From Marinicella sp. (GTDB lineage: Bacteria; Pseudomonadota; Gammaproteobacteria; Xanthomonadales; Marinicellaceae): 64,000 bases of DNA. Within the stretch, counting starts at the first letter, position 1, and the number at the start of each line of letters is the position of its first letter. The position numbers and the translations under genes are program-made. Location: NCBI GenBank assembly GCA_965230295.1, contig OZ246001.1, forward strand, positions 320,001-384,000, in the 5' to 3' direction. Of the stretch, positions 1,269-18,441 are shown piece after piece. A model generated the notes under the pieces. The model searched no databases. It was given only the letters and a program-made list of their open reading frames with translations, and was not told where the DNA came from.

Positions 1269-2300
1269 ATGGATACTTTAAACCAATCCCGATACAGCTT
1301 AAAGTCAGTCTGTGCGCTTGTTTTTGCGCTGATATTATCAGCCTGCCAAAGTCCAAGTCCCAGATCTGTCTTTACTGATACCATAGAAGACACACCCATT
1401 GAATTACATACCGTTTTATTGGCATCAAAATGTGAATTAGCCAAAGCATTTGTAGCCATAAAAAATCAGGGTATTGACGTTAAAATCTATGATGGCACCA
1501 TGGAATTCAGCGGCACCATTAAAACAACCAAAGACAAAGGTTTCAGTATTTCTGCTGTCATTCCCCTGGGCGCTGAACATGTGCTAGAACCCGATTTTGG
1601 CTACGGGAATACTGCAGTGACCACCCAAAACATCGTTCTTAAAAACAAACTATCCAGTACAGTTAAAGACACTTCAGTGTGTCAATCACCTACATTAGCA
1701 AATTTTGACACCGGCAACTTTATTTCAGAGGCCATCATCAGCACTGCTGATGGCATTGCATCCATCCCAACTGGACCAGATGGCAAGGCTTATCAGCCGT
1801 CATTGAATGAAACCGAACTTAACATCACCACCTCATTCAACGTTGTGAAACTTAAAAATGGCGGCGTGGCTCTTAAGTATGTCTGGCCAACATCTCGAGA
1901 GCACTTGGATGGACTCACACCAGGTGGAACATTGGATAACTCCATCGATACGACCTACACCTTGACCATTAAACTGCCATTGGTTGCAACAAACCCACCC
2001 GTAGACCCACGTAAAATAATGCGCTGTAAAAATGACATCAGTTCAGGTGAAACCATTTGTATAGAGTCTCCCTATATTGTTAGCGCCAATAAAAATGATG
2101 CCATGGAATATGATGACTTCCCAAGTAGAGGCGTCTTGTGGTTTCTGTCAGAAGAATTCATTCAATGGTTAGGAGAAAATGACCTACTTGGCCAAGGAAA
2201 TATGATGCAACAACAATCCCTGCCTTTCAAACTACCTAAGCAGCCTCCTAAAAACCTAAAAGGCAAAGAAGTAGATGACATCTACACACGAGATCGTTGA
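1269..2300 (+). CDS. Hypothetical lipoprotein, possibly with two Trypco-like domains
   Basis: 343-aa ORF with hydrophobic leader and lipobox ILSAC. Confidence 0.65.
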   Translation: MDTLNQSRYSLKSVCALVFALILSACQSPSPRSVFTDTIEDTPIELHTVLLASKCELAKAFVAIKNQGIDVKIYDGTMEFSGTIKTTKDKGFSISAVIPLGAEHVLEPDFGYGNTAVTTQNIVLKNKLSSTVKDTSVCQSPTLANFDTGNFISEAIISTADGIASIPTGPDGKAYQPSLNETELNITTSFNVVKLKNGGVALKYVWPTSREHLDGLTPGGTLDNSIDTTYTLTIKLPLVATNPPVDPRKIMRCKNDISSGETICIESPYIVSANKNDAMEYDDFPSRGVLWFLSEEFIQWLGENDLLGQGNMMQQQSLPFKLPKQPPKNLKGKEVDDIYTRDR

Positions 2301-2576
2301 TTGATAACAAATAAGATTGATTAATTCACCACAAAATAGACTTTAGTAACTTTAACCGCTTCTGCATCTCCTACCAGCATCATGTGATGTCTTCTTTCAT
2401 CAAGATTTTCTGCGTTGTTGAGGTAGAATTAACTACAGAAGCATAATCATTTGCTGAGATCAGAATCTGACCTTGTTGACTTAATAAACCGTCTCTTTTG
2501 CTGAATGTAATTAGGCAATGGTATTGATTTTGGGTAACGGGCAAATATCTAATGAATGCTAATTAATCTTGAACCC

Positions 2577-3323
2577 TTATTCAACTTCACCTTCAATACT
2601 TGACCAATGATCGTCAAATACGCCTGTAAGTAAATTAGAAACAATAAGAAGACAACATCCAATAATTCCAATTGCCATATTTTCGTTTATTGCGCTTTCA
2701 AAAATCGTATCAACATATTTAAGGTAAAATAACATTACAAAAAATGGAAGTACAACGGGGGCATCTATAAAACGGATTAGACCGACTAGGTATCTTTCTT
2801 GCTTAGTATTTTTGATACCTAACTTGTTTGCTTGACTTTTCACATGTCTCAAAGCAATGTAATTTACGAAAAAAAAGAAGATCAGAGGCATCATAGGAAT
2901 GTAAGGTGCAATACCGTGAATTAAAACGTAGAATGCCTTTCCATCCTCTTGAATTTCAAGCAAAGGAATAAGTTCGCCTTGACTATTAACAACCTTTGTT
3001 TCAAAGAAGATCACAGTTAGTTTTATCAGTATAAAAATGCCAATCACATTGAGCACACAACTCTTAATTCGTGCATTGAATTTTCTAGATGCATACTCAA
3101 AACCGCTAAATTGCATCAGTTTTTGTGCCACAAGAAACACATGAACAAGAGCTGCAATCTCCCAAGCTGCCAAAGGAGGTACTTGCCAACCAACGTAAGA
3201 AGAAAGAAATTTAAGATATGAAGCAATAACAAGAATTACAATAAAAACTATTAAGTGCGTCCAAGCTGAACAGCGAGAATATAGAAAATTCTGAACTCGT
3301 TTGAAATATGAAAAAAAACTCAT
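2577..3323 (-). CDS. Hypothetical polytopic membrane protein (about six TM segments)
   Basis: 248 aa with alternating hydrophobic segments; ATGA overlap with the upstream methyltransferase. Confidence 0.7.
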   Translation of the reverse strand: MSFFSYFKRVQNFLYSRCSAWTHLIVFIVILVIASYLKFLSSYVGWQVPPLAAWEIAALVHVFLVAQKLMQFSGFEYASRKFNARIKSCVLNVIGIFILIKLTVIFFETKVVNSQGELIPLLEIQEDGKAFYVLIHGIAPYIPMMPLIFFFFVNYIALRHVKSQANKLGIKNTKQERYLVGLIRFIDAPVVLPFFVMLFYLKYVDTIFESAINENMAIGIIGCCLLIVSNLLTGVFDDHWSSIEGEVE

Positions 3324-4081
3324 TCTAGTTTCTTCCCAATTATAAGATGATCTTGAAAATCAATTTCTAGGGTTGCATCAGCATATTTCACAAGACGATT
3401 TCCAAATGCTTCCGTCGTAGGAATTGTAGGTCGCCAAAACCTTCTAAGTGATTCAAGTTCAGCTTTGCTAAAACCATCTCCATCTGGAAATTGAAACCGA
3501 GAACGTAGCGTGAATGATGATTCATCGAGATTAAATAGGCGAAAGAGTGATTCAACTTTGTTAGCACAATTTGGCAATGGTGGCAAATCTAGAAAGAAAG
3601 GGCTCTGTTCTGGGAGAACTAAAGCAAACACTGCTCCTCCAGGACGCAAATGAAAATTAATCAAGTCCTTTAATGACTCTTCGAAGTTATCAATGTAGTA
3701 GGTAGAGTGTAAAAACAGAATTGCATCAGTAACATAATCTTCAGGAATTTCTTTGATATTAGAAAACGAATTGTATAGAGGTCCTAGTTTTGATCTTGGC
3801 AAGATATGAGCTTTCACACGTTCTCTAGCCGTTTGTGATGGCTCGACTATCGTTAGTGAAGGGAAGCATCTGGTTTTTGTAAATATCTGTTCGCATATTG
3901 TTTCAGTAGAAGTACCTGTCCCACAACCTATATCTAAAATTGATGTTTGGCAACTCTTGGATGAAGCGTACTTTACAATCGCCCCTGCAATTGCACTTGT
4001 TATTTTATACCAATCATCTGTACTGCAGAACTGTGAAAACAACCTGTAAGAATGATCATGCTTTTTCCAAAAGTCAGACAT
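3320..4081 (-). CDS. Class I SAM-dependent methyltransferase
   Basis: Motif I ILDIGCGTG, acidic IVEPS, DAILFLHSTYYI, LRPGG. Confidence 0.85.
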   Translation of the reverse strand: MSDFWKKHDHSYRLFSQFCSTDDWYKITSAIAGAIVKYASSKSCQTSILDIGCGTGTSTETICEQIFTKTRCFPSLTIVEPSQTARERVKAHILPRSKLGPLYNSFSNIKEIPEDYVTDAILFLHSTYYIDNFEESLKDLINFHLRPGGAVFALVLPEQSPFFLDLPPLPNCANKVESLFRLFNLDESSFTLRSRFQFPDGDGFSKAELESLRRFWRPTIPTTEAFGNRLVKYADATLEIDFQDHLIIGKKLE

Positions 4082-4730
4082 GTTTAAGTATGTTGAGTTG
4101 TTTATCTTCTAAAAGAAATACAGCATCAAAAGGGATAGTGAGTCTCCTTTGATATAACAATATAGTAATTTGATTTTTATTCCTGCGTATTTTAACAATC
4201 TCTGAAAGAAGACTAATTTGCAGTTTATTACTTGGACATGGAATCTCATCAATGATTAAAAGGAATGGATCTAGAATATATGCATAAAAACAAACCACTA
4301 CCCGCCAAAGATCTGGATTCGAAAGATCTCTCGGATTACATTCTAAATTTTTTGGAAGCGAGTGTTTTTCTGCGAAATCAATGTAAATATTTTCTAAAGA
4401 TAGTTTATCTGTGCCTATCGCATAAGAATATAATTCATTCCGAACGGATGAACCAAGAATAGATAAATGACCAACCTGTTGAATATAGGAAGTAATTTTG
4501 CACCGTTCTGCTGGTGGGGTGACTGCTGGCGATATTCCATTAATGAAATAGCTTCCACTATCAGGTTTAATTAACCCAGCAAGAAGACGACCAAATGTCG
4601 TTTTTCCTGAACCATTGTCTCCAATAATTAAAATGCTCTGCCCAGCATCAAAATTGCAGTTGATACCTGATAAGATTGGAGAGGTGGGCCCATATGAAAA
4701 TTCCAAATTTTTAATTTGCAATGTAGTCAT
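4074..4730 (-). CDS. ECF/ABC-type ATPase with degenerate signature motif
   Basis: LEFSY start, Walker A GDNGSGKTT, Q-loop YIQQ, Walker B LLIIDE; signature reads LSNPD. Confidence 0.85.
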   Translation of the reverse strand: MTTLQIKNLEFSYGPTSPILSGINCNFDAGQSILIIGDNGSGKTTFGRLLAGLIKPDSGSYFINGISPAVTPPAERCKITSYIQQVGHLSILGSSVRNELYSYAIGTDKLSLENIYIDFAEKHSLPKNLECNPRDLSNPDLWRVVVCFYAYILDPFLLIIDEIPCPSNKLQISLLSEIVKIRRNKNQITILLYQRRLTIPFDAVFLLEDKQLNILKHV

Positions 4731-4735
4731 AATAA

Positions 4736-5257
4736 TTATTGTACCTCGATTAATCTTGATCCAGAACTTTCTAGGTTTCTTGCGTTTATCAGGTGGGGTA
4801 TCAATATCTTATTATCGTAATCAACAAATGCTGTATTTAGAATACCTAAATTCTCAAAACCATCCAAAAGTTTTCTGATTGTTGAATCTGAAAGGTGGCC
4901 AATAAAATCGACGAAAAGTAGATTATTACACATGCGATTCGCGAACAGAGATAACGCCAAAACTTTTCGCCAACCACCAGAAAGGTGATACACTTTTTTT
5001 TCAAGCACCCCCTCCCAAGACCAAAATTCTATAAACTGATTACAGTTCATGCGAGCATCCAGACACTTATTTTGATGGCTAACCACAAGGTCAATTTCTT
5101 CGCTAACAAACTGTGTGAGGCATGAATATTCAGCAAAAAGAACCGGAGCAAAATAAATCACTGGCTTATCTATGAATCTCGCAAATTGGTTACATATAGT
5201 TTGCGGACGTTGTTCCATTAAACTCCAATCTGAACAAGATATTTGGTAAAAATTCAT
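4736..5257 (-). CDS. Truncated ABC-ATPase-like subunit lacking Walker A
   Basis: Signature HLSGGWRKVLAL and Walker-B-like LLFVDFIGHLS; no GxxGxGK; ATGA-coupled to the ecfT-like gene. Confidence 0.65.
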   Translation of the reverse strand: MNFYQISCSDWSLMEQRPQTICNQFARFIDKPVIYFAPVLFAEYSCLTQFVSEEIDLVVSHQNKCLDARMNCNQFIEFWSWEGVLEKKVYHLSGGWRKVLALSLFANRMCNNLLFVDFIGHLSDSTIRKLLDGFENLGILNTAFVDYDNKILIPHLINARNLESSGSRLIEVQ

Positions 5258-5964
5258 AGGCCGTAATTTCGTTGTATGCCGACTAGAAATAACATTACAA
5301 GTGTAATGAAAAGCAACTTTTGCGCTAAAGTCAGTACTGGCTTTCTCGGATTAGTTGGATAAAAGTAGTGAGGACTTCCCACGATTTCTCGATAGCGAAA
5401 TGCATAGGCTGCTTCGCAAATTGCTGATGTTAACAAAGGAACAATCCAAACATTTAGGTGACGAATATGCTGCAATTTCGTTTCCAGCGGTATTCCTCGT
5501 AGAATACTTGTTTCTCGAATAGTTTCAAGCCTTCGTATTAGTCGCTCTCTTGTAGCGAAGACCGAAATAAGTGGTCTAAATGCTCTTAAACCAGTCCAAT
5601 GTGATAACTCGTGAGGTAATCTTTCTCCTTCCAACTCTGAAACCATGAAAAGTCCAGGAAGAATAACAAGAAAATATGCGTACAATGGAAAAGGTAAACT
5701 TTGTATCAGCTTTTCTGCTTCCAATAAGTCTAAATTGCCGTTAATTATCAATGTCATCATAAAAACATATACAAATGTAAACATTACCAGCAGTAATGCT
5801 GATGACCACTTTTTCCGTATTATGAGAAAAATTGGTAAAATTGTGACACAGATCGCTAGATATAATAATTTCTCACCAAGAAAGTACTCAGCACTATTTT
5901 TAAATAGAAATGATACCAAATAAAGCCCTACCAACACGAATACTGTAAAGTTTGGTGACTTCAT
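5254..5964 (-). CDS. ECF transporter transmembrane T component (divergent)
   Basis: N-terminal TM helices, then IRETSILRG and WIVPLLTSAI resembling EcfT coupling helices; lies between the S component and the ATPases. Confidence 0.65.
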   Translation of the reverse strand: MKSPNFTVFVLVGLYLVSFLFKNSAEYFLGEKLLYLAICVTILPIFLIIRKKWSSALLLVMFTFVYVFMMTLIINGNLDLLEAEKLIQSLPFPLYAYFLVILPGLFMVSELEGERLPHELSHWTGLRAFRPLISVFATRERLIRRLETIRETSILRGIPLETKLQHIRHLNVWIVPLLTSAICEAAYAFRYREIVGSPHYFYPTNPRKPVLTLAQKLLFITLVMLFLVGIQRNYGL

Positions 5965-5966
5965 CT

Positions 5967-6548
5967 TTATTCATTTAATGGTTTTGTTTGTGATCGAAGT
6001 CCAAAATCTTTAAAAAACCTTCTAGGAAGGGAACGAAGAATGAGACAAGCAGATATTGACACTAATATCTTGTCAACAATTTCAGAAGAGATTCCAGATA
6101 AAATCACTGAGTTTAAAATATTTTGACCAGTTTGTCGTATTAGGGCTGTTAACAAATCTACACCACTGGCAGTCACACCACCAAACAAATAAGCAGTCAC
6201 TGGTGCTGAAACAATTGCTGCAACCAGAGCCAGAATAATGCCAGCAATAACGCTTGATCGGATATTTCGGAACATTTGTTTTTTTGTAAGCAACTCACAA
6301 GTGATTACAAGGGCTATAAGGGTCGCAGAGTATGCTGGCAAGTATGGGTTGATTATTAAGAAGCCAACTCCTACAGTAATTGAACCGGTTAATAGACCAT
6401 ACCGCCATCCGAGAAGTACAGTTGAGAGAATCAGGCCAATCGAGTCTAAATAGATTGGTAATTTCAACCATGAAACTATCCCACCTATTGTTAAATTGAT
6501 AGCGGCCAATGCCAGAGCAATTGATGTTTTTTGAATATTCATCTTCAA
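5967..6548 (-). CDS. ECF transporter S component, QrtT-like (ATG at 6542 may be the true start)
   Basis: KLPIYLDSIG..LLG, LFGGVTASGVD and IVDKIL match my recollection of the QrtT/STY3230-type S-component family. Confidence 0.85.
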   Translation of the reverse strand: MKMNIQKTSIALALAAINLTIGGIVSWLKLPIYLDSIGLILSTVLLGWRYGLLTGSITVGVGFLIINPYLPAYSATLIALVITCELLTKKQMFRNIRSSVIAGIILALVAAIVSAPVTAYLFGGVTASGVDLLTALIRQTGQNILNSVILSGISSEIVDKILVSISACLILRSLPRRFFKDFGLRSQTKPLNE

Positions 6549-10569: not shown

Positions 10570-13500
10570 ATGGGCCGTCACATCACAGCAGCGTTCTGCT
10601 TTCTCTCATGCATTGCATTTTCTTCTGTTCAAGCGCAAGATCGTTACTATCATGTTTACATCGACAGTGACAATGAAACCACCACTGGGTGTGATGTCAA
10701 CATCCCGGATTTTGCCACCACACTTAATGGCATAGACTCAAGGGTCACCATCACCACCAACAGTGCTTTACCACCTGCCATTACCAACAGCAGTATACAC
10801 ACCTGTACGGGTGCCGCCTTTGATGCGGGTGTGCCCGTTAATGCGGCTGCATTGGGCTTCAACACGGGCTTCAACGGTTCTGATGTGTTTGAGACCAGTA
10901 TTGACCGAACTGATTTGCTTCACACTTCGCAACGCAGCCTGCGCGCTTATTTTGCCACCGACACTGCGGTTGCAGATGATGTGGTGCTGACCAACAGTGG
11001 CGGTGGTGCAATCCTGTTGGGATTCCCTTTTGCCATCCCTACTCTCAGTCTATTCGGTTTATTGCTGATTGCCATGCTGGTTTTACTGGCTTCAAGAAAA
11101 CAGCTCCACAAGCGAATCATGGTTTCTGTGGTATTGGTTGGCGTAGCGACAGTGGCGCTTGCCATGAGCATTGTGGTCGATGGTCAAACCAATGACTGGA
11201 TGAATATCGGGCCGGCTAACACCGATCCCGTTGGTGACACTTCTGCAGCAGGTAATTATGCAGATTTAACTGCCGTCTATTTGACTCAACAAAATGATGT
11301 CATTTTCTTCCGCATGGATGTATCCGATTTGGAAAACCAGGCACCCACAATCACCACAGCTGCAGCAGTCAGCGTGGTTGAAAACCAGACAGCAGTTATT
11401 GATGTCAATTCAACTGACCCAGAAGGCGATGTTGAAGGCGCTGGTTTAAGCTACACCATCACAGGTGCTGTTGATGATGCCCTGTTCACAATCAACCCCA
11501 ACACTGGAGTTCTGACTTTCCTGGTAGCGCCAGATTTCGAAAACCCAAGTGATGTGGGTGCAGACAATGTGTATAACGTGCAAGTCACAGTGACCGACTC
11601 TGGGGCCGCCACCGATGTACAAGACCTGGCTGTCACCGTCACCAATGATGTGGTGGATGACACTTCCGTGGCATTCCAAACAGCCAACAGCAACACCGTT
11701 GATGAAGGCACTGCATTGAATGTGGTTGTACAGCTAACTGCATCAGCACCACTGACAGCGGCGGTATCTATCGACGTAGTGGATGCTGGCGGTGGTTCTG
11801 CCACCAGTGGCTCTGATTACACCGCATTCGGCACACAAACGGTGACGTTCCCAATGGGCGCCACCAATGGCACAACACAGAATGTCATTTTGACTCCCAA
11901 TGATGATGTCAATGTAGAAAACAACGAAACTGTCAATCTACAACTGCAAAATATCAGTGGCCCGGCATTAATTGGCAGCCAAACGGCTCATGTGGTCAGT
12001 ATCACAGAAGATGATGTGGCAACAGTTGAATTTGATACCGCTGCCAGTGGCACAGTTGATGAAAACACTCCATTGGATATAACTGTACGATTAAACATTC
12101 CCAGTGGCGGGCAGTTAGATGTTGCCGTCAGTGCAGATGTGGTTGATGCAGGCACCGGAACCGCGACCAGTGGGGTTGATTACACCGCTTTTGGTACCCA
12201 AATGGTGACATTCCCAATTGGCTCAACCAACGCCAATACACAAAACACAACGCTAACGCCATTGGATGATCCTAATTCAAAAGGCAATGAAACAGTCGAT
12301 TTAGCTTTACAAAATTTAACCGGACCACCAGCGGCATCACTGGGTACTCAAACCACCCACACAGTCACCATTACTGATGATGAAGCCGCAGTATCATTCC
12401 AAGTTACCAGCAGCTCAACGGTAGATGAAGGCACTAACCTGAATGTGGCCGTGGTATTGAGCACACCAATTCCCTTAACGGCACCAGTTTCAGTGGATGT
12501 GATTGACGTTGGTGGTGGATCTGCCATCAGTGGCACAGATTTCATCGCCTTTGGCACCCAAACTGTGACTTTCCCATTGGGTTCAACCAATGGCACCATC
12601 CAAAATGCGGTGTTATCGCCGATTGATGACAACAATGTAGAAAACAATGAAACCGTGAATTTAGAGCTACAAAACCTGGTTGGTACTGGATCGATAGGCA
12701 CTCAAAACACACACACAGTGACCATCACAGAAGACGACACAGCCAGTGTGGCATTCCAAGCGGCCAGCAGTGCAACGGTCAATGAAGGTACGCCACTGAA
12801 TATCAGTGTATTATTGACCATCCCGAGTGGTGGCCAATTAGACATCGCAGTTTCTGCCGATGTGATCGATGCAGGTGGTGGATCAGCCACCAGTGGTGTT
12901 GATTACAATGTTTTTGGCACCCAAGCCATAACATTTCCTGTGGGTACTGGAAACGGTGCCACACAAACCTCAACTTTAACGCCCATCGATGATCCAAATT
13001 CAGAAGGCAATGAAACGGTCAATTTGGCGTTGCAGAATCTAGTTGGACCCATTTCGGCTTCCTTAGGAGCGCCAACCGCCCACACGGCCACGATCACCGA
13101 TGACGAAGCTTCTGTGGTGTTCCAAAATATTGCCAGCTCGACCATTGATGAAGGCACAGCTTTGAATATACCAGTGGTGTTATCAACCCCAATTCCATTG
13201 GGTGCACCTTTGTCTGTTGATGTGGTCGATGCCGGCGGTGGGTCAGCCACCAGTGCTGCAGATTACACGGCCATTGGCACACAAACCGTCACTTTCCCAA
13301 TGGGTTCTACCAATGGTGCCACGCAGAATGCCAATTTCAACCCCATCGATGACACCAATGTTGAAAACAATGAGACGGTCAATTTACAGTTACAAAATCT
13401 GGTTGGTTCAGGTTCGATTGGCACCCAATCCACACAAACCATCACCATCACTGAAAATGATACTGCCACGGTTGAATTCCAGGCTGCCAACAGCGCCACA

Positions 13501-16500
13501 GTAGATGAAAGCACTGCACTGAATATCAATGTGCTATTAAACATCCCCAGTGGTGGCCAGTTAGATGTTGCGATCACTCTGGATGCCATTGATGCCGGTG
13601 GTGGTTCTGCCACCAGTGGTGTAGATTACACCGCTTTTGGCACCCAAATGCTGACTTTCCCTGTTGGTTCAAACGATGGTGCGACACAAAACACCACACT
13701 CACCCCGCTTGATGATGTTGCTACCGAAGGTGACGAAACGGTTAATTTACAGTTGCAAAACCTGGCTGGGCCAATACTGGCTGGTTTGGGTGCACAGACC
13801 ACCCACACCGCCACCATCACTGATGATGACAACACCGCCCCAACGGCCAACCCGGACAGCTATGAAACAATTGGTAACACCGGGCTCAATGCCACTGCAG
13901 GTGCACCATCCACTCCGATACTGCACCCCCAGAATTTGATTTTCAACGACACCGACCCAGAATTGGATCCATTGGTGGTGTCTGAAGCCATGGGTGACTT
14001 GACAGCTCCATTCACAGGAACAGGTACTATGGGCGGTGATGTCGTGGTGCAAGCCAATGGTGATTTCACCTACTACCCACCAGTGGGTGTAACCGGCATT
14101 ACTGACACCTTTGATTACACCGTCAGTGATGGCAGCCTCACTTCATCAGCAACCGTATCAATCACCGTCACAGCCGATTTGGTTTATTATGTAGATAACA
14201 CCGCTGCAGCTGGTGGTACCGGTCGAGATGATGCTCGTTTTGACCAACTGTCAGATGTTCCGGCGGCAGCTGCCAACACCACTGTCTTTGTTTTCCAAGG
14301 TGCCGGTGATACCACAGGTGCCATCACCATGGGAGCCAACCAAGTCTTGATTGGTAATGGTGTCAATCTGGAATTCAATGTCAACAACACCTTACCCAAT
14401 CCAGATGTTTTGATTCCTGCTGCTGGTCGTCCAACATTAACCGGAACCTCAACTTTGGGCACCAACAACACCATCAGGGGCCTGAACATTGGTAACACGG
14501 GTGCTCAGACAGGCATCACAGGTAACAACTTTGGTACCGCCACCATCAACAATGTGGCCATCAACGGTACCGGAAAAGCCCTTGACTTAACCACCGGTAC
14601 AGCAGCAATGACTTTTGATTCAATTGCTTCAACCAACAGTGCTTCTGAGGGTGTTGACCTCAGTGAAGTGAGTGGTAATTTCACAGTTACGGGACTGACA
14701 AACATCACCAATCCAGCACAAATTGGGGTGAACATCCAAAATTCCAATTTGATCTATACTTTTGGCGACGTCACAGTGAACAACCGCAACAGTGCAGGTG
14801 TGTTCATCAATGCCTTCACTGGTGGAACTCAAACCGGTACATTCGGTAATGTGGTCATCAACAACCAAAACACCTCTCCTTCCACGGCCTTTGGCATCGA
14901 CAACACGGTTACTGGTGGTAGTATCATCAATGTGGCCAGCGTGGCCATCGACAACAATGGGTCTAACAGTTCAGCCATCGCCCTGTCTAACAACGATGGC
15001 GCCACCATCAACATCAATGGCGGCAGCGTACAAGGTGCAGCGGGTGCGGCTGTGAGTATATCCAGCAGTGCAGGCAATGCAACTTATGCAGGATCGATCA
15101 ACAACACAGCTGGACGTTCACTACAGGTGTTGAACAACACAGGTGGTGTGACCACCCTATCAGGAAACATCACTGATTCCGGGACTGGCATATTCGTAAA
15201 TAACAACACTGGATCCACCATCAACTTCTCAGGAACCATTGACTTAGACACCACCACCAATACCGCATTCACAGCAACTGGCGGTGGTACCGTAAATGCC
15301 ACTGGCAGTAGCAGCACCATCAACACCAGCAGTGGCATCGCAGTGGATGTGCAAAATACCACCATTGGAGCCAGTAACCTGACATTCCAAAGCATCTCTG
15401 CCGGGACTGGTGCAGGCACAGCAGGGGTTGGCATCAACTTGGTCAATACGGGAAATGCAGGTGGTTTGGCTGTTACAGGAGTGGCCTCCAACGCCAGTTC
15501 TGGCGGTGTCATTCAAAATAAAAATGGCGCCAATGGCAGCACCGCTGGAGGCATTGGTATTCACCTGAACAACACCAGTAACGTTTCACTGAGAAACATG
15601 CAATTGGGCGGCTTTGATAATTTCGCCATACGTGGCACCACAGTGACCAACTTCACCATGATCGATTCTGTGGTCAATGCCAACAGCGGTAATTCAGCAG
15701 CCGATGATGAAGGCGCCATCAGTTTCACCAACCTGTTGGGTACGTCAGTCTTTTCAGGCAACAATGTGGCTGGTGGTTTTGAGGACCAAATCAAAATAAC
15801 CAATACCACAGGAACCTCCAGCATCACCGTTAATGACAGCGCCAATGATGCAGCTGTGATTGGCCTGGATGCCAACCCGGCAGGTACCAATGGCAATGAT
15901 GGCATCTTGGTCGAAAGCCAGATGGCTGCACAAATTAATTTAACCGTAGATGGTGTTGAATTCTTGGGCGCCCGTGGTGACATGATACAAACCAATGCAT
16001 TGAATACATCAAACTTCACGACTTTGATTCAAAACAACAGTTTCAATAACAGCCACCCTAACATTGTACCTGGCGGTGGCGGCATCACCTTATCCGGTGG
16101 TGGGGCGGGTGCCAACATCACCAAAGGCTATGATGTGTTGAATTCCAATTTCACCGGGGCTGTGGGCAATGCCACCACAGTTAATTTTGTTTCAGGTGCT
16201 GGTACCGTCAGTGGCGAAGTCACTAACAACATGGTCGGCACCAATGGTGTACCAGCCTCTGGCTCCACAACTGCCAGCGGGATTTCGATTGGTGCCTCAG
16301 CCAATGTACAACACAACACCACCATTGATAATAATCAGGTCAGGGGTGTCAGTGGTTTTGCCGGCATTGAAACCGTAGCCAATACCGATGTCAACTTCAA
16401 TGCCACCATCATCAATAATGTGGTTGAACAACTGGCAGGAAATGTACTCGGTGCCATGTACAACCTGGTTGGCGGAGCAGGCACTGAAACGGGTACTGCT

Positions 16501-16797
16501 TGCTTAGATGTAAGAAGTAATACTTTTGATGCCAGTGCTGCCCCATTTGCGGGCCACGCCGTATTAAAAGATCAGATCAGTGCTACTGCCAACTTCAATT
16601 TGCCAGGTTATACCGGATCGCCTAACGGCGAATTTGCCTTTGCTTGTGCAACTGGCACTGCCGGTGTTAATGCTGGGGCCCATCATGCCGGAAATTTCAA
16701 TACCATGACCAATGGGCCCTTCCCGTTTATTGTTGGTGGTGTGGATGCCACCATTGTTTGTGGCATGACAGGCATAGGCACCAGCTGCCCGCAATAA
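10570..16797 (+). CDS. Giant surface/adhesin-like protein: signal peptide, internal IPTL-TM segment, cadherin-like domain, six Calx-beta-like repeats, Ig-like domain, beta-helix region
   Basis: 2075 aa. AIPTLSLFGLLL at aa 155-166; NQAPTIT..DFENP..VTND cadherin pattern; SATSGxDY..TFP..DD..E.NETV repeats; NTAPTANPD..DTFDYTVSDG; N/T/G-rich C-terminal half. Confidence 0.85.
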   Translation: MGRHITAAFCFLSCIAFSSVQAQDRYYHVYIDSDNETTTGCDVNIPDFATTLNGIDSRVTITTNSALPPAITNSSIHTCTGAAFDAGVPVNAAALGFNTGFNGSDVFETSIDRTDLLHTSQRSLRAYFATDTAVADDVVLTNSGGGAILLGFPFAIPTLSLFGLLLIAMLVLLASRKQLHKRIMVSVVLVGVATVALAMSIVVDGQTNDWMNIGPANTDPVGDTSAAGNYADLTAVYLTQQNDVIFFRMDVSDLENQAPTITTAAAVSVVENQTAVIDVNSTDPEGDVEGAGLSYTITGAVDDALFTINPNTGVLTFLVAPDFENPSDVGADNVYNVQVTVTDSGAATDVQDLAVTVTNDVVDDTSVAFQTANSNTVDEGTALNVVVQLTASAPLTAAVSIDVVDAGGGSATSGSDYTAFGTQTVTFPMGATNGTTQNVILTPNDDVNVENNETVNLQLQNISGPALIGSQTAHVVSITEDDVATVEFDTAASGTVDENTPLDITVRLNIPSGGQLDVAVSADVVDAGTGTATSGVDYTAFGTQMVTFPIGSTNANTQNTTLTPLDDPNSKGNETVDLALQNLTGPPAASLGTQTTHTVTITDDEAAVSFQVTSSSTVDEGTNLNVAVVLSTPIPLTAPVSVDVIDVGGGSAISGTDFIAFGTQTVTFPLGSTNGTIQNAVLSPIDDNNVENNETVNLELQNLVGTGSIGTQNTHTVTITEDDTASVAFQAASSATVNEGTPLNISVLLTIPSGGQLDIAVSADVIDAGGGSATSGVDYNVFGTQAITFPVGTGNGATQTSTLTPIDDPNSEGNETVNLALQNLVGPISASLGAPTAHTATITDDEASVVFQNIASSTIDEGTALNIPVVLSTPIPLGAPLSVDVVDAGGGSATSAADYTAIGTQTVTFPMGSTNGATQNANFNPIDDTNVENNETVNLQLQNLVGSGSIGTQSTQTITITENDTATVEFQAANSATVDESTALNINVLLNIPSGGQLDVAITLDAIDAGGGSATSGVDYTAFGTQMLTFPVGSNDGATQNTTLTPLDDVATEGDETVNLQLQNLAGPILAGLGAQTTHTATITDDDNTAPTANPDSYETIGNTGLNATAGAPSTPILHPQNLIFNDTDPELDPLVVSEAMGDLTAPFTGTGTMGGDVVVQANGDFTYYPPVGVTGITDTFDYTVSDGSLTSSATVSITVTADLVYYVDNTAAAGGTGRDDARFDQLSDVPAAAANTTVFVFQGAGDTTGAITMGANQVLIGNGVNLEFNVNNTLPNPDVLIPAAGRPTLTGTSTLGTNNTIRGLNIGNTGAQTGITGNNFGTATINNVAINGTGKALDLTTGTAAMTFDSIASTNSASEGVDLSEVSGNFTVTGLTNITNPAQIGVNIQNSNLIYTFGDVTVNNRNSAGVFINAFTGGTQTGTFGNVVINNQNTSPSTAFGIDNTVTGGSIINVASVAIDNNGSNSSAIALSNNDGATININGGSVQGAAGAAVSISSSAGNATYAGSINNTAGRSLQVLNNTGGVTTLSGNITDSGTGIFVNNNTGSTINFSGTIDLDTTTNTAFTATGGGTVNATGSSSTINTSSGIAVDVQNTTIGASNLTFQSISAGTGAGTAGVGINLVNTGNAGGLAVTGVASNASSGGVIQNKNGANGSTAGGIGIHLNNTSNVSLRNMQLGGFDNFAIRGTTVTNFTMIDSVVNANSGNSAADDEGAISFTNLLGTSVFSGNNVAGGFEDQIKITNTTGTSSITVNDSANDAAVIGLDANPAGTNGNDGILVESQMAAQINLTVDGVEFLGARGDMIQTNALNTSNFTTLIQNNSFNNSHPNIVPGGGGITLSGGGAGANITKGYDVLNSNFTGAVGNATTVNFVSGAGTVSGEVTNNMVGTNGVPASGSTTASGISIGASANVQHNTTIDNNQVRGVSGFAGIETVANTDVNFNATIINNVVEQLAGNVLGAMYNLVGGAGTETGTACLDVRSNTFDASAAPFAGHAVLKDQISATANFNLPGYTGSPNGEFAFACATGTAGVNAGAHHAGNFNTMTNGPFPFIVGGVDATIVCGMTGIGTSCPQ
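11665..13830 (+). repeat. Six Calx-beta-like coding repeats arranged (AB)3 with a 723-bp period
   Basis: Equivalent Phe codons at 11674, 12031, 12397, 12754, 13120 and 13477 (alternating 357/366 bp spacing). Confidence 0.9.
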
Positions 16798-16871: not shown

Positions 16872-17378
16872 ATGTCAGAACCATTTTTGGCCGAAATCAG
16901 GATGATGGGCTTTAATTTCGCACCCAGAGGATGGGCACTTTGTGATGGACAAATCTTGCCCATCAACCAAAACCAGTCGCTGTATTCGTTGTTGGGAACC
17001 ACCTATGGTGGTGATGGCCGCACTTCATTCGCATTGCCTGAGTTGCGTGGCCGCACACCTATCCATGTAGGACAAGACGGTGGGAGCAGTTTTACCGAGG
17101 GTCAACAGGGCGGCGAGGAAGCCCATACACTGACCATCAGTGAAATACCACAACACAAGCATGACGTACACACGTCAGCCAATGATGGTAATGCACCGAT
17201 TCCTGTAGACAATACCTTGGGTGGCTTTAACAACGGTTATAACAGTGGCAGCAACCTGCTTAACATGACCAATGAAGTGGCCAATGCTGGCGGCGGCCAA
17301 GCTCATAACAACATGCAACCTACCTTGGCGGTGAATTTTTGTATCGCCCTACAAGGTTTGTTCCCACCAAGAAACTAG
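16872..17378 (+). CDS. Phage tail-collar domain protein (MdpB/microcystin-dependent protein-like), copy 1
   Basis: MSEPFLAEIR..FNFAPRGWALCDGQ..SLLGTTYGGDG..FALPELRGR; PQHKH; NFCIALQGLFP. Confidence 0.92.
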   Translation: MSEPFLAEIRMMGFNFAPRGWALCDGQILPINQNQSLYSLLGTTYGGDGRTSFALPELRGRTPIHVGQDGGSSFTEGQQGGEEAHTLTISEIPQHKHDVHTSANDGNAPIPVDNTLGGFNNGYNSGSNLLNMTNEVANAGGGQAHNNMQPTLAVNFCIALQGLFPPRN

Positions 17379-17387
17379 GAGGTCATC

Positions 17388-17906
17388 ATGTCAGAACCAT
17401 TTGTAGGCGAAATCAGAATGTTTGCCGGGAACTTTGCCCCTCGTGGCTGGGCTTTTTGTGATGGGCAATTACTTGCTGTGTCGCAGAATGACGCTTTATT
17501 TTCACTGTTGGGTACCATCTATGGCGGTGATGGCCGAACCACTTTTGGCTTACCGGATATGCGAGGTCGCATTCCCAACCATGCAGGAACTGGCCCTGGC
17601 CTTTCACCCAGACCACTTGGACAAAAAACGGGCAGTGAAAATGAAACTTTAACCGTTAATCAACTGCCATCACACAATCATGACATGTCGGTATCGACAG
17701 ATGCAGGTACTCAGAGCACCAGCAACGGGCAATATTTGGCCTCATCGCCGAATGTGCGTATTTTCAGACCAGCCGGTCCCAACAGTTCACTGTTGAATAC
17801 ATCAGTGACTAACTTTGGAGGCAGCGGTTCACACGCCAACGTGATGCCATTTTTGTGTGTGAATTTTATCATCGCATTGGTTGGAATTTATCCAAGTCGC
17901 ACCTAA
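17388..17906 (+). CDS. Phage tail-collar domain protein, copy 2
   Basis: Same motifs; PSHNH; AGGAGG RBS. Confidence 0.92.
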   Translation: MSEPFVGEIRMFAGNFAPRGWAFCDGQLLAVSQNDALFSLLGTIYGGDGRTTFGLPDMRGRIPNHAGTGPGLSPRPLGQKTGSENETLTVNQLPSHNHDMSVSTDAGTQSTSNGQYLASSPNVRIFRPAGPNSSLLNTSVTNFGGSGSHANVMPFLCVNFIIALVGIYPSRT

Positions 17907-17916
17907 GGAGCTTATC

Positions 17917-18441
17917 ATGTCAGAACCATTTATTGCAGAAATCAGAATATTCGCAGGTAACTTTGCTCCCAGGAGCTGGGCCTTTTGTAATGGCCAATTG
18001 TTACCTATTGCACAAAACACCGCATTGTTTTCTTTGATCGGCACCACATATGGTGGTGATGGAAGAACCACCACTGCCTTACCTAACTTACAAGGCCGTG
18101 CACCCATGCACCCTGGCCGTGGGCCAGGACTCACAGATCGACGACTGGGTCAAAAAGGTGGTACGGAAACCGTCACCCTTAACGATAATCAGATACCAAG
18201 TCATAACCACAACCTCAACACTTCTACATCACCAGGTACCTCTTTCAGTCCAACAGCGTCTGCTTATTTATCAAGAAGTGTGGGCGGCAATGCATATGAC
18301 AGTGGTGACAACTTGAGCAGTGAAATGAACACTGGCGCCTTACAAAACATGGGCGGCAGCCAGGCTCACAACAACATGCAACCTTTCTTGGCGATTAATT
18401 ACATCATCGCTCTGCAAGGATTGTATCCTTCCAGAGGTTAA
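17917..18441 (+). CDS. Phage tail-collar domain protein, copy 3
   Basis: Start moved to ATG 17917 (MSEPF, AAGGAG RBS); same motifs; PSHNH. Confidence 0.92.
   Translation: MSEPFIAEIRIFAGNFAPRSWAFCNGQLLPIAQNTALFSLIGTTYGGDGRTTTALPNLQGRAPMHPGRGPGLTDRRLGQKGGTETVTLNDNQIPSHNHNLNTSTSPGTSFSPTASAYLSRSVGGNAYDSGDNLSSEMNTGALQNMGGSQAHNNMQPFLAINYIIALQGLYPSRG

Follow-up and report, generated by a model that had tools for sequence, protein, structure and literature searches.

We analyzed a 64,000-nucleotide stretch of the genome of a Marinicella sp. (GenBank assembly GCA_965230295.1; contig OZ246001.1, positions 320,001 to 384,000; this whole stretch is called the window, and its first letter is position 1) and focused on a giant protein of 2075 amino acids (aa) encoded on its plus strand. 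We propose that the first 258 residues of this protein constitute a module through which giant adhesin-like proteins are processed and anchored at their N-terminus in bacteria with exosortase H (XrtH), and we assign this explanation as a whole a probability of about 0.5. The module consists of a signal peptide, a beta-rich domain (domain A), an internal IPTL-type sorting signal, a basic loop, a second hydrophobic helix with an AxA-type end, and a further domain (domain B). This layout is conserved end to end on many kinds of passengers. The occurrence of an XrtH-type signal in the middle of a protein is already known (i.e., the curated NCBIfam model NF033207, "midcut-by-XrtH"). What is new is that two apparently co-evolving halves flank the membrane hairpin, that B is homologous to unsplit domains resembling the CBM9/DOMON type, and that the halves appear in reversed order.

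The open reading frame (ORF; 10570..16797, 2075 aa plus stop) runs in a single frame without internal stops, and an AGGGG-type ribosome-binding stretch lies a few bases 5' of the ATG of ORF 10570-16797. The N-terminal module is followed by a giant passenger, and all parts described here are on the plus strand. The first signal peptide (MGRHITAAFCFLSCIAFSSVQA; aa 1-22, 10570..10635) ends in VQA/Q, where the slash marks the predicted cleavage site, and its residues 3-16 are modelled as a helix by AlphaFold2. Domain A (aa 23-153, 10636..11028) contains YHVYIDSDNETTTG (aa 27-40) and FETSIDRTDL (aa 107-116); its conserved residues are D32, D34, G40, C41, C79, G100, D105, E108, and D137. The internal IPTL-type (exosortase H) sorting signal AIPTLSLFGLLLIAMLVLLASRKQLHKR (aa 155-182, 11032..11115; IPTL at 156-159) is made up of AIPTLSLFG, the hydrophobic helix LLLIAMLVLLAS, and the basic cluster RKQLHKR. 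The second hydrophobic segment (aa 183-198, 11116..11163; IMVSVVLVGVATVALA followed by MS, aa 183-200) resembles a signal peptide. It ends in ALA/MS and has the design of a signal peptidase I substrate (i.e., a short hydrophobic core and small residues at -3 and -1; A196-L197-A198/M199), and AlphaFold2 models a helix at 181-196. Domain B (aa 199-258, 11164..11343) carries IVVDGQTNDW, DPVGD, DLTAVY, and IFFRMD, all within aa 201-250, a beta-hairpin at 233-251 with the strands DLTAVYLTQ and VIFFRMDV, and the linker DVSDLENQAP. The earlier note, which was made from the sequence alone, had recognized the first signal peptide, A, the IPTL segment, the second signal-like stretch, and the motifs of B, and the translation places each of them where that note had put it. 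The passenger (aa 259-2075, 11344..16794) contains a cadherin domain, Calx-beta domains (six stretches), and a Big_9/Cadherin_4 match, and its last about 870 aa match no family. The chain after Ala198 is 1877 aa long. Neither A nor B is covered by any Pfam or NCBIfam model.

An exhaustive HMMER search with aa 1-277 as the query, counted as representative clusters, recovered module homologues in 426 clusters at E<=1e-3 (235 at <=1e-10 and 46 at <=1e-30). The proteins headed by the module range from 253 to 2643 aa among the 150 homologues listed, and the organisms named include Marinicella, Aquimonas, Ottowia, and Contendobacter. The earlier note had suggested looking for the module on other passengers, and it does head many different ones. 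The database names of the homologues follow the passengers only (Calx-beta, tandem-95 repeat, Ig-like, and FG-GAP); since annotation pipelines at present derive names solely from the repeats of the passenger, databases give no sign of the module. Of 401 sampled genomes of the phylum, only the source genome (G000) and genome G035 contained the full module. A search for related loci with the single protein returned one locus.

The breadth of this distribution bears on a trivial explanation, according to which two neighbouring genes, for a small IPTL-CTERM protein and a large secreted protein, appear fused because a stop codon was lost through an error in sequencing or assembly. The layout does resemble the end of one gene followed by the start of another, but it is uninterrupted in 146 of the 150 listed homologues, in which one stretch from query residue 34 or earlier to residue 234 or later covers both A and B. 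The module loci of 26 related genomes (of 41) likewise contain no internal stops. The junction is also crossed by a 335-nt contig from another public run (positions 10980-11314) that shows no indels, and the six distinct substitutions found across three contigs are all synonymous, third-position changes. A further run (X1) yielded no contig although all sampled words occur in it, and no RNA run was listed for this region. The conserved layout and the independent junction-spanning contig effectively refute a fusion artefact, whose probability we regard as practically negligible. The same contig and the 26 related genomes answer the concern of the earlier note that a stop might lie between the two transmembrane segments.

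A reduced variant was observed in genome G038 (contig C17; L028:3091-4527, minus strand). This 478-aa protein carries an A-like domain, a hairpin of two helices whose motif is degenerate, and a reduced B-like piece that lacks the VDG..DW start, followed by a different, shorter passenger.

Site-by-site conservation was counted in an alignment of 151 sequences, and spacing was counted in the 143 of them with both anchors aligned. Pro157 is present in 150/151 sequences and I/V156 in 136/151, while at the predicted second cleavage site Ala198 and A/V196 each occur in 134/151. In domain B, D204 (143/151), G205 (145/151), and W210 (150/151) are conserved. The first basic residue follows Pro157 at a median distance of 19, the basic loop has a median of 3 basic residues, and the second hydrophobic run has a median length of 16 residues, counted from the last basic residue up to position -1. 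AxA occupies positions -3 to -1 in 71/143 sequences and VxA in 41/143 (together, 112/143), and a small -1 residue with a permissive -3 residue is found in 136/143. Both the sorting signal inside the protein and the signal-like segment after it, which the earlier note described, are real and conserved.

These spacings are relevant to a simpler model, in which nothing is cut after the first signal peptide and a permanent inner-membrane hairpin carries the A-B sandwich and the passenger on the periplasmic face; the IPTL-like motif would then serve to pack the helices or to dock XrtH, which would not cleave it. The model is compatible with the helical hairpin predicted by AlphaFold2 (161-176 and 181-196), with a PF18203 score of the protein that stays under the cut-off (see below), and with the fact that the cleavages are predictions. 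A permanent anchor accounts poorly for the shortness of both hydrophobic runs and for the conserved AxA/VxA-type site at the end of the second one, and the near-invariance of Pro157 exceeds the needs of a plain membrane helix. Moreover, an 1877-aa adhesin fixed to the inner membrane would presumably be unable to reach the cell surface. On balance, we consider a permanent anchor unlikely.

The IPTL-CTERM/exosortase H system (PF18203, TIGR04174, TIGR04177, and NF041730) is characterized by a common [IV]P[AT]L[GS]xxG motif, a hydrophobic helix, and a basic cluster, and the window protein has this tripartite design. It differs in location, because IPTL-CTERM signals are normally C-terminal, whereas the signal described here lies at aa 155-182 of a 2075-aa protein, 155 residues after its start. 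Inspection of the translation revealed no IPTL-type tail at the real C-terminus. A six-frame search of the source genome (one contig, 4,008,074 bases) with PF18203 gave 22 bits at the internal signal, one of only two matches in the genome above the cut-off of 20.8. Among 19 module sequences, PF18203 matched 5 (best, 1.4e-7) and TIGR04174 matched 6 (best, 1.4e-4). NF033207 matched 17 of the 19 at E<=10 (best, 4.1e-8); on the window protein it gave 20.1, 22, and 18.8 bits in separate searches, which do not reach its cut-off of 45, and the 20.1-bit match spans aa 153-235. The proteins described by NF033207 contain a similar arrangement (i.e., an XrtH-type signal, a basic loop, a second hydrophobic helix, and further protein), and the window protein shares with them the mid-protein signal and the second membrane segment. 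True members (G058 and G205) are 182-248 aa long, with about 15 residues before the signal, an unrelated Cys-containing tail, and neither A nor B. Judged from the sequences, the likeness is confined to the hairpin of the signal and the second helix.

Both the enzyme and the associated protein of the exosortase H system are encoded in the genome to which the window belongs. XrtH (TIGR04177; 163 bits, cut-off 86) is located at G000:C1:2414702-2415169, and the XrtH-associated protein XrtH_assoc (NF041730; 163.2 bits, cut-off 35) at C1:868052-868600, not adjoining the giant gene. The Pfam model Exosortase_EpsH (PF09721) had no match in the genome, and the short XrtH was detected solely by TIGR04177.

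Four other frames of this genome end in XrtH-like tails (G000:C1, about 2285718 [minus strand], 3776 [plus], 2783674 [plus], and 820300 [minus]). These tails begin with VPGLS, VPVNS, VPVNS, and VPAID, respectively, and continue with a hydrophobic helix and a basic end; solely the VPGLS tail (about 2285718) passes PF18203 (21.1 bits). The source genome thus seems, from such motif matches, to encode few canonical IPTL-CTERM substrates. Convergent to the XrtH gene (L014:6700-7239) lies a gene for a 776-aa protein (L014:7534-9864, minus strand; about G000:C1:2415533-2417863) with cadherin-like repeats and a region that, by eye, resembles OmpA. A comparison of coordinates showed that at least 8 genomes of the genus have a frame of about 770-795 aa with a cadherin-repeat match no more than about 1.5 kb away from XrtH. 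The protein encoded next to XrtH might act in the system as a partner or an acceptor.

Three computations support the view that A and B behave as one structural unit, none of them being decisive. First, an AlphaFold2 model of aa 1-277, computed from a 32-row alignment, had a mean pLDDT of 84.5 and a pTM of 0.79; the B blocks (residues 201-250) reached pLDDT values of 86-95, and the two helices form the hairpin mentioned above. Second, a mean-field coupling analysis (177 sequences, 262 columns) recovered within-domain pairings (Y27-T130 and I61-T109; L233-V251 and T239-F246 of the B hairpin) and placed A-B couplings at ranks 2, 3, 5, and 6 (F128-V236, 2.52; G96-T207, 2.25; T99-T207, 1.99; S104-T234, 1.91). 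A-B pairs made up 13 of the top 30 (7.6 expected), and pairs linking A to the membrane segments or to the signal peptide were depleted. On the basis of an antiparallel ladder of couplings (126-238, 128-236, and 130-234), the B strand 233-241 would lie next to the A strand 123-131. When B was shuffled among the sequences six times, A-B scores peaked at 0.90-1.28, and no A-B pair entered the top 30; because this null also removes shared ancestry, it overstates the significance. Third, a two-chain prediction of aa 23-152 with aa 199-262 scored 0.54, which is rated "weak support," versus 0.01 for the best control; contact agreement between runs was at least 91% and partner pLDDT at least 58. Of 80 solved complexes, 58 attain the mark used for such scores, as do 2 of 110 mismatched pairs; scores of 0.60 or less comprise just 7 of the 80 solved complexes yet both of the passing mismatches. 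The earlier note had read A and B as halves of a single domain. The chain model, the couplings, and the two-chain score favor that reading, but one continuous A-B sheet is deduced from couplings and secondary structure rather than observed.

The earlier note had also labeled this domain DOMON/CBM9-like and regarded its parts as permuted. Evidence on both points comes largely from relatives of B. With the module profile, B-only matches were obtained in other lineages, either inside 3100-aa frames (G412 and G326) or directly after an ordinary signal peptide (G129). In such unsplit proteins, 55 B-like residues are immediately followed by about 100 further beta-rich residues. Using an unsplit-domain alignment of eight sequences, including 7 relatives gathered by genome search, hhalign aligned B (aa 199-252) with unsplit-domain positions 12-65 at 97.45% probability (E 8.9e-12). 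The AlphaFold2 model of the unsplit domain (pLDDT 76.1; pTM 0.77) shows a B-type hairpin followed by six strands, and it resembles CBM9 1i82_A (Z 10.0; rmsd 3.6; 147 residues aligned), 4jpq_B (Z 10.0), the ethylbenzene dehydrogenase gamma subunit 2ivf_C (9.7), Nxr gamma 7b04_C (9.1), Sas6 7uwu_A (8.9), glucodextranase 1ulv_A (8.8), the cytochrome domain of cellobiose dehydrogenase 1d7c_A (8.0), and dopamine beta-hydroxylase 4zel_B (6.9). The Ig-like background, with Z values of 5.6 or less, lies below these matches. Foldseek agreed weakly, with 2ivf_C as the best match of the unsplit model (E 5e-3). The unsplit relatives of B are thus predicted to adopt the fold of the CBM9/DOMON sandwiches.

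Domain A is linked to the same fold less directly. The sole beta-sandwich matches among its top ten were 7uwu_A (Z 5.5; 336-572), 1ulv_A (Z 4.8; 800-1020), and 4jpq_B (Z 4.7; 106-250), all of which rank among the six best entries for the unsplit domain. In each case, A spans the C-terminal part of the range covered by the unsplit domain (i.e., 223-570 in 7uwu_A, 702-1018 in 1ulv_A, and 33-248 in 4jpq_B). An Atlas feature search with A pointed to a Glucodextran_C cluster (0.89) and a part-CBM9_1 cluster (0.81), which we treat as leads only. None of the Pfam models CBM9_1, DOMON, EB_dh, and Glucodextran_C matched the protein, A, B, or the unsplit relatives, even at E<=10. A Foldseek search of the PDB with the module model found no match at E<=0.001, a wide structure search with that model returned mostly helical-hairpin matches to residues 154-198, and the module profile found nothing meaningful among PDB sequences (best E 0.49). 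The DOMON/CBM9 label is thus backed indirectly, by Z values of 8-10 for the unsplit relative of B and of 4.7-5.5 for A, but by no Pfam match to either domain. As for the permutation, B corresponds to the first 55 residues of the unsplit domain and A falls in the C-terminal ranges, but an A-only profile showed no similarity to the unsplit domain (hhalign, 0.43%; hmmsearch, 2.2 bits). Taken together, B probably makes up the first third of a CBM9/DOMON-like sandwich and A its remaining, C-terminal two-thirds, with the order swapped and the hairpin joining the former termini. Relative to known CBM9/DOMON domains, the order of the parts would be reversed and 45 membrane residues would interrupt the domain. 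A circularly permuted, split sandwich is plausible but not proven.

An unannotated CBM9/DOMON-like domain without a Pfam match is found at L046:1597-2136 (minus strand) and in the relatives L047-L052, within proteins of 3049-4265 aa. These proteins belong to one genus of another family of the phylum, where 7 of the 14 genomes searched encode them. Additionally, aa 22-123 of the window protein (10633-10938) are weakly similar to the body of the Firmicu-CTERM family (TIGR04145; 16 bits, cut-off 50; profile positions 34-142 of 191), as are 4 of the 19 module sequences. In that family, the part matching A directly precedes a C-terminal sorting tail, and the likeness may echo an ancestral protein composed of A plus a tail.

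The relation between A and B is also what separates our proposal from an alternative with two unrelated products, in which XrtH and signal peptidase both cut, A is sorted alone as a small XrtH substrate, and the B-headed passenger goes its own way. Canonical midcut-by-XrtH proteins, with their short N-terminal part and no A or B, indicate that such a hairpin needs no split domain, and B-like sequences without A exist in other proteins. Two independent products would leave unexplained why the A-B couplings are as strong as those within domains and why B is modelled with high confidence only within the chain model. Furthermore, the about 100 sandwich residues that follow B in its unsplit relatives are missing here, so that B on its own could not complete the fold. 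The relatives yielded no stand-alone A, their short matches (G034 and G039) being contig-end truncations. A search for stand-alone proteins of 100-319 aa consisting of a signal peptide, A, and an IPTL tail also found none, although this word-limited search was of weak reach and missed known 280-aa fragments. We judge two unrelated products to be improbable.

Under the explanation that we prefer (i.e., a processing and anchoring module), the first signal peptide would direct the export of A by Sec. The IPTL helix would then stop transfer, leaving RKQLHKR in the cytoplasm, and the second helix would restart export, carrying B and the passenger across. Both at the outer face of the inner membrane, A and B would pack into one beta-sandwich. 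XrtH would cut at IPTL and hand the new C-terminus of A to an acceptor, and signal peptidase I may cleave behind Ala198. With the hairpin then discarded, the 1877-aa passenger would be held by its N-terminus through the non-covalent A-B sandwich. We infer these steps from Sec signals, stop-transfer segments, the positive-inside rule, and the exosortase paradigm. A more radical version, which we consider very improbable, is that XrtH acts as a transpeptidase and splices out the hairpin, joining the carboxyl group of A's IPT to the amino group of residue 199 freed by signal peptidase. The pre-folded A-B sandwich would hold that amino group beside the IPT end of A. Such splicing would produce a continuous, membrane-free protein with a circularly permuted CBM9/DOMON-like head; it would make an exosortase the enzyme of a protein-splicing reaction and would identify the first acceptor for this enzyme class.

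Several points weigh against the proposed tethering module, in addition to the weak structural matches of A, its lack of profile similarity to the unsplit domain, the deduced nature of the common sheet, and the limits of the shuffling and two-chain results given above. The cleavages at IPTL and at ALA/M and the role of a tether are inferred, and our literature search found no experiment on any XrtH substrate. How a protein of about 2000 aa that has been processed at the inner membrane crosses the outer membrane is left unexplained. At the protein level, PF18203 gave 15.3 bits for the whole protein and 18.8-19 bits for an N-terminal piece, below the cut-off, and no TIGR04174 match was listed at the locus of the giant gene. 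The XrtH gene is 2.08 Mb away from the giant gene and does not adjoin it. Among 41 related genomes, 25 of the 26 with the module also encode XrtH; since XrtH is near-universal in the order (38/41 genomes), the co-occurrence there says little. Of 201 sampled genomes of the class, 9 have an XrtH match above the cut-off, including both full-module genomes (G000 and G211), so that co-occurrence outside the order rests on one independent genome (G211). Genome G035, from the phylum sample, also has XrtH. Finally, a wider and noisier coupling run (114 sequences, 320 columns) yielded 13 A-to-cadherin pairs among its top 50 (8.2 expected). Among its top 200, A-to-cadherin pairs numbered 20 (32.6 expected) and A-B pairs 49 (31.6 expected), and T99-T207, S104-T234, and F128-V236 remained in the top 10.

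Functional parallels to the proposed tether exist in other systems. SEA and GAIN domains are cleaved but remain associated, the cut chain being held by shared beta-strands, and an N-terminal retention module anchors the giant RTX adhesins of the LapA type. These are analogies of function only, as the folds and secretion routes are different and no sortase-type enzyme is known to be involved. A literature search on exosortase H, IPTL-CTERM, and midcut returned nothing on this layout or on NF033207, and mid-protein signals are not mentioned in the passages retrieved from a 2023 myxosortase preprint. Although exosortases are widespread, we know of no identified acceptor to which they attach their substrates. 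A recognition signal located between the halves of one co-evolving domain would provide a clean handle on this acceptor, as the predicted new termini are defined. If the proposal is correct, a sorting machine of the C-terminal type anchors a 2000-residue adhesin by its N-terminus, and the CBM9/DOMON superfamily gains a circular permutant interrupted by a membrane hairpin.

Elsewhere in the window, the giant gene is followed directly on the plus strand by three tandem small genes (16872-17378, 17388-17906, and 17881-18441) encoding proteins of 168, 172, and 186 aa. All three have the phage tail collar domain (PF07484), with E values of 1e-27 to 1e-30, and Gp10_C is matched by two of them as well. 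The G+C content falls to 0.35-0.36 at positions 2001-6000, compared with 0.40-0.50 elsewhere in the window, and this stretch covers a run of six minus-strand frames located between 2577 and 6548.

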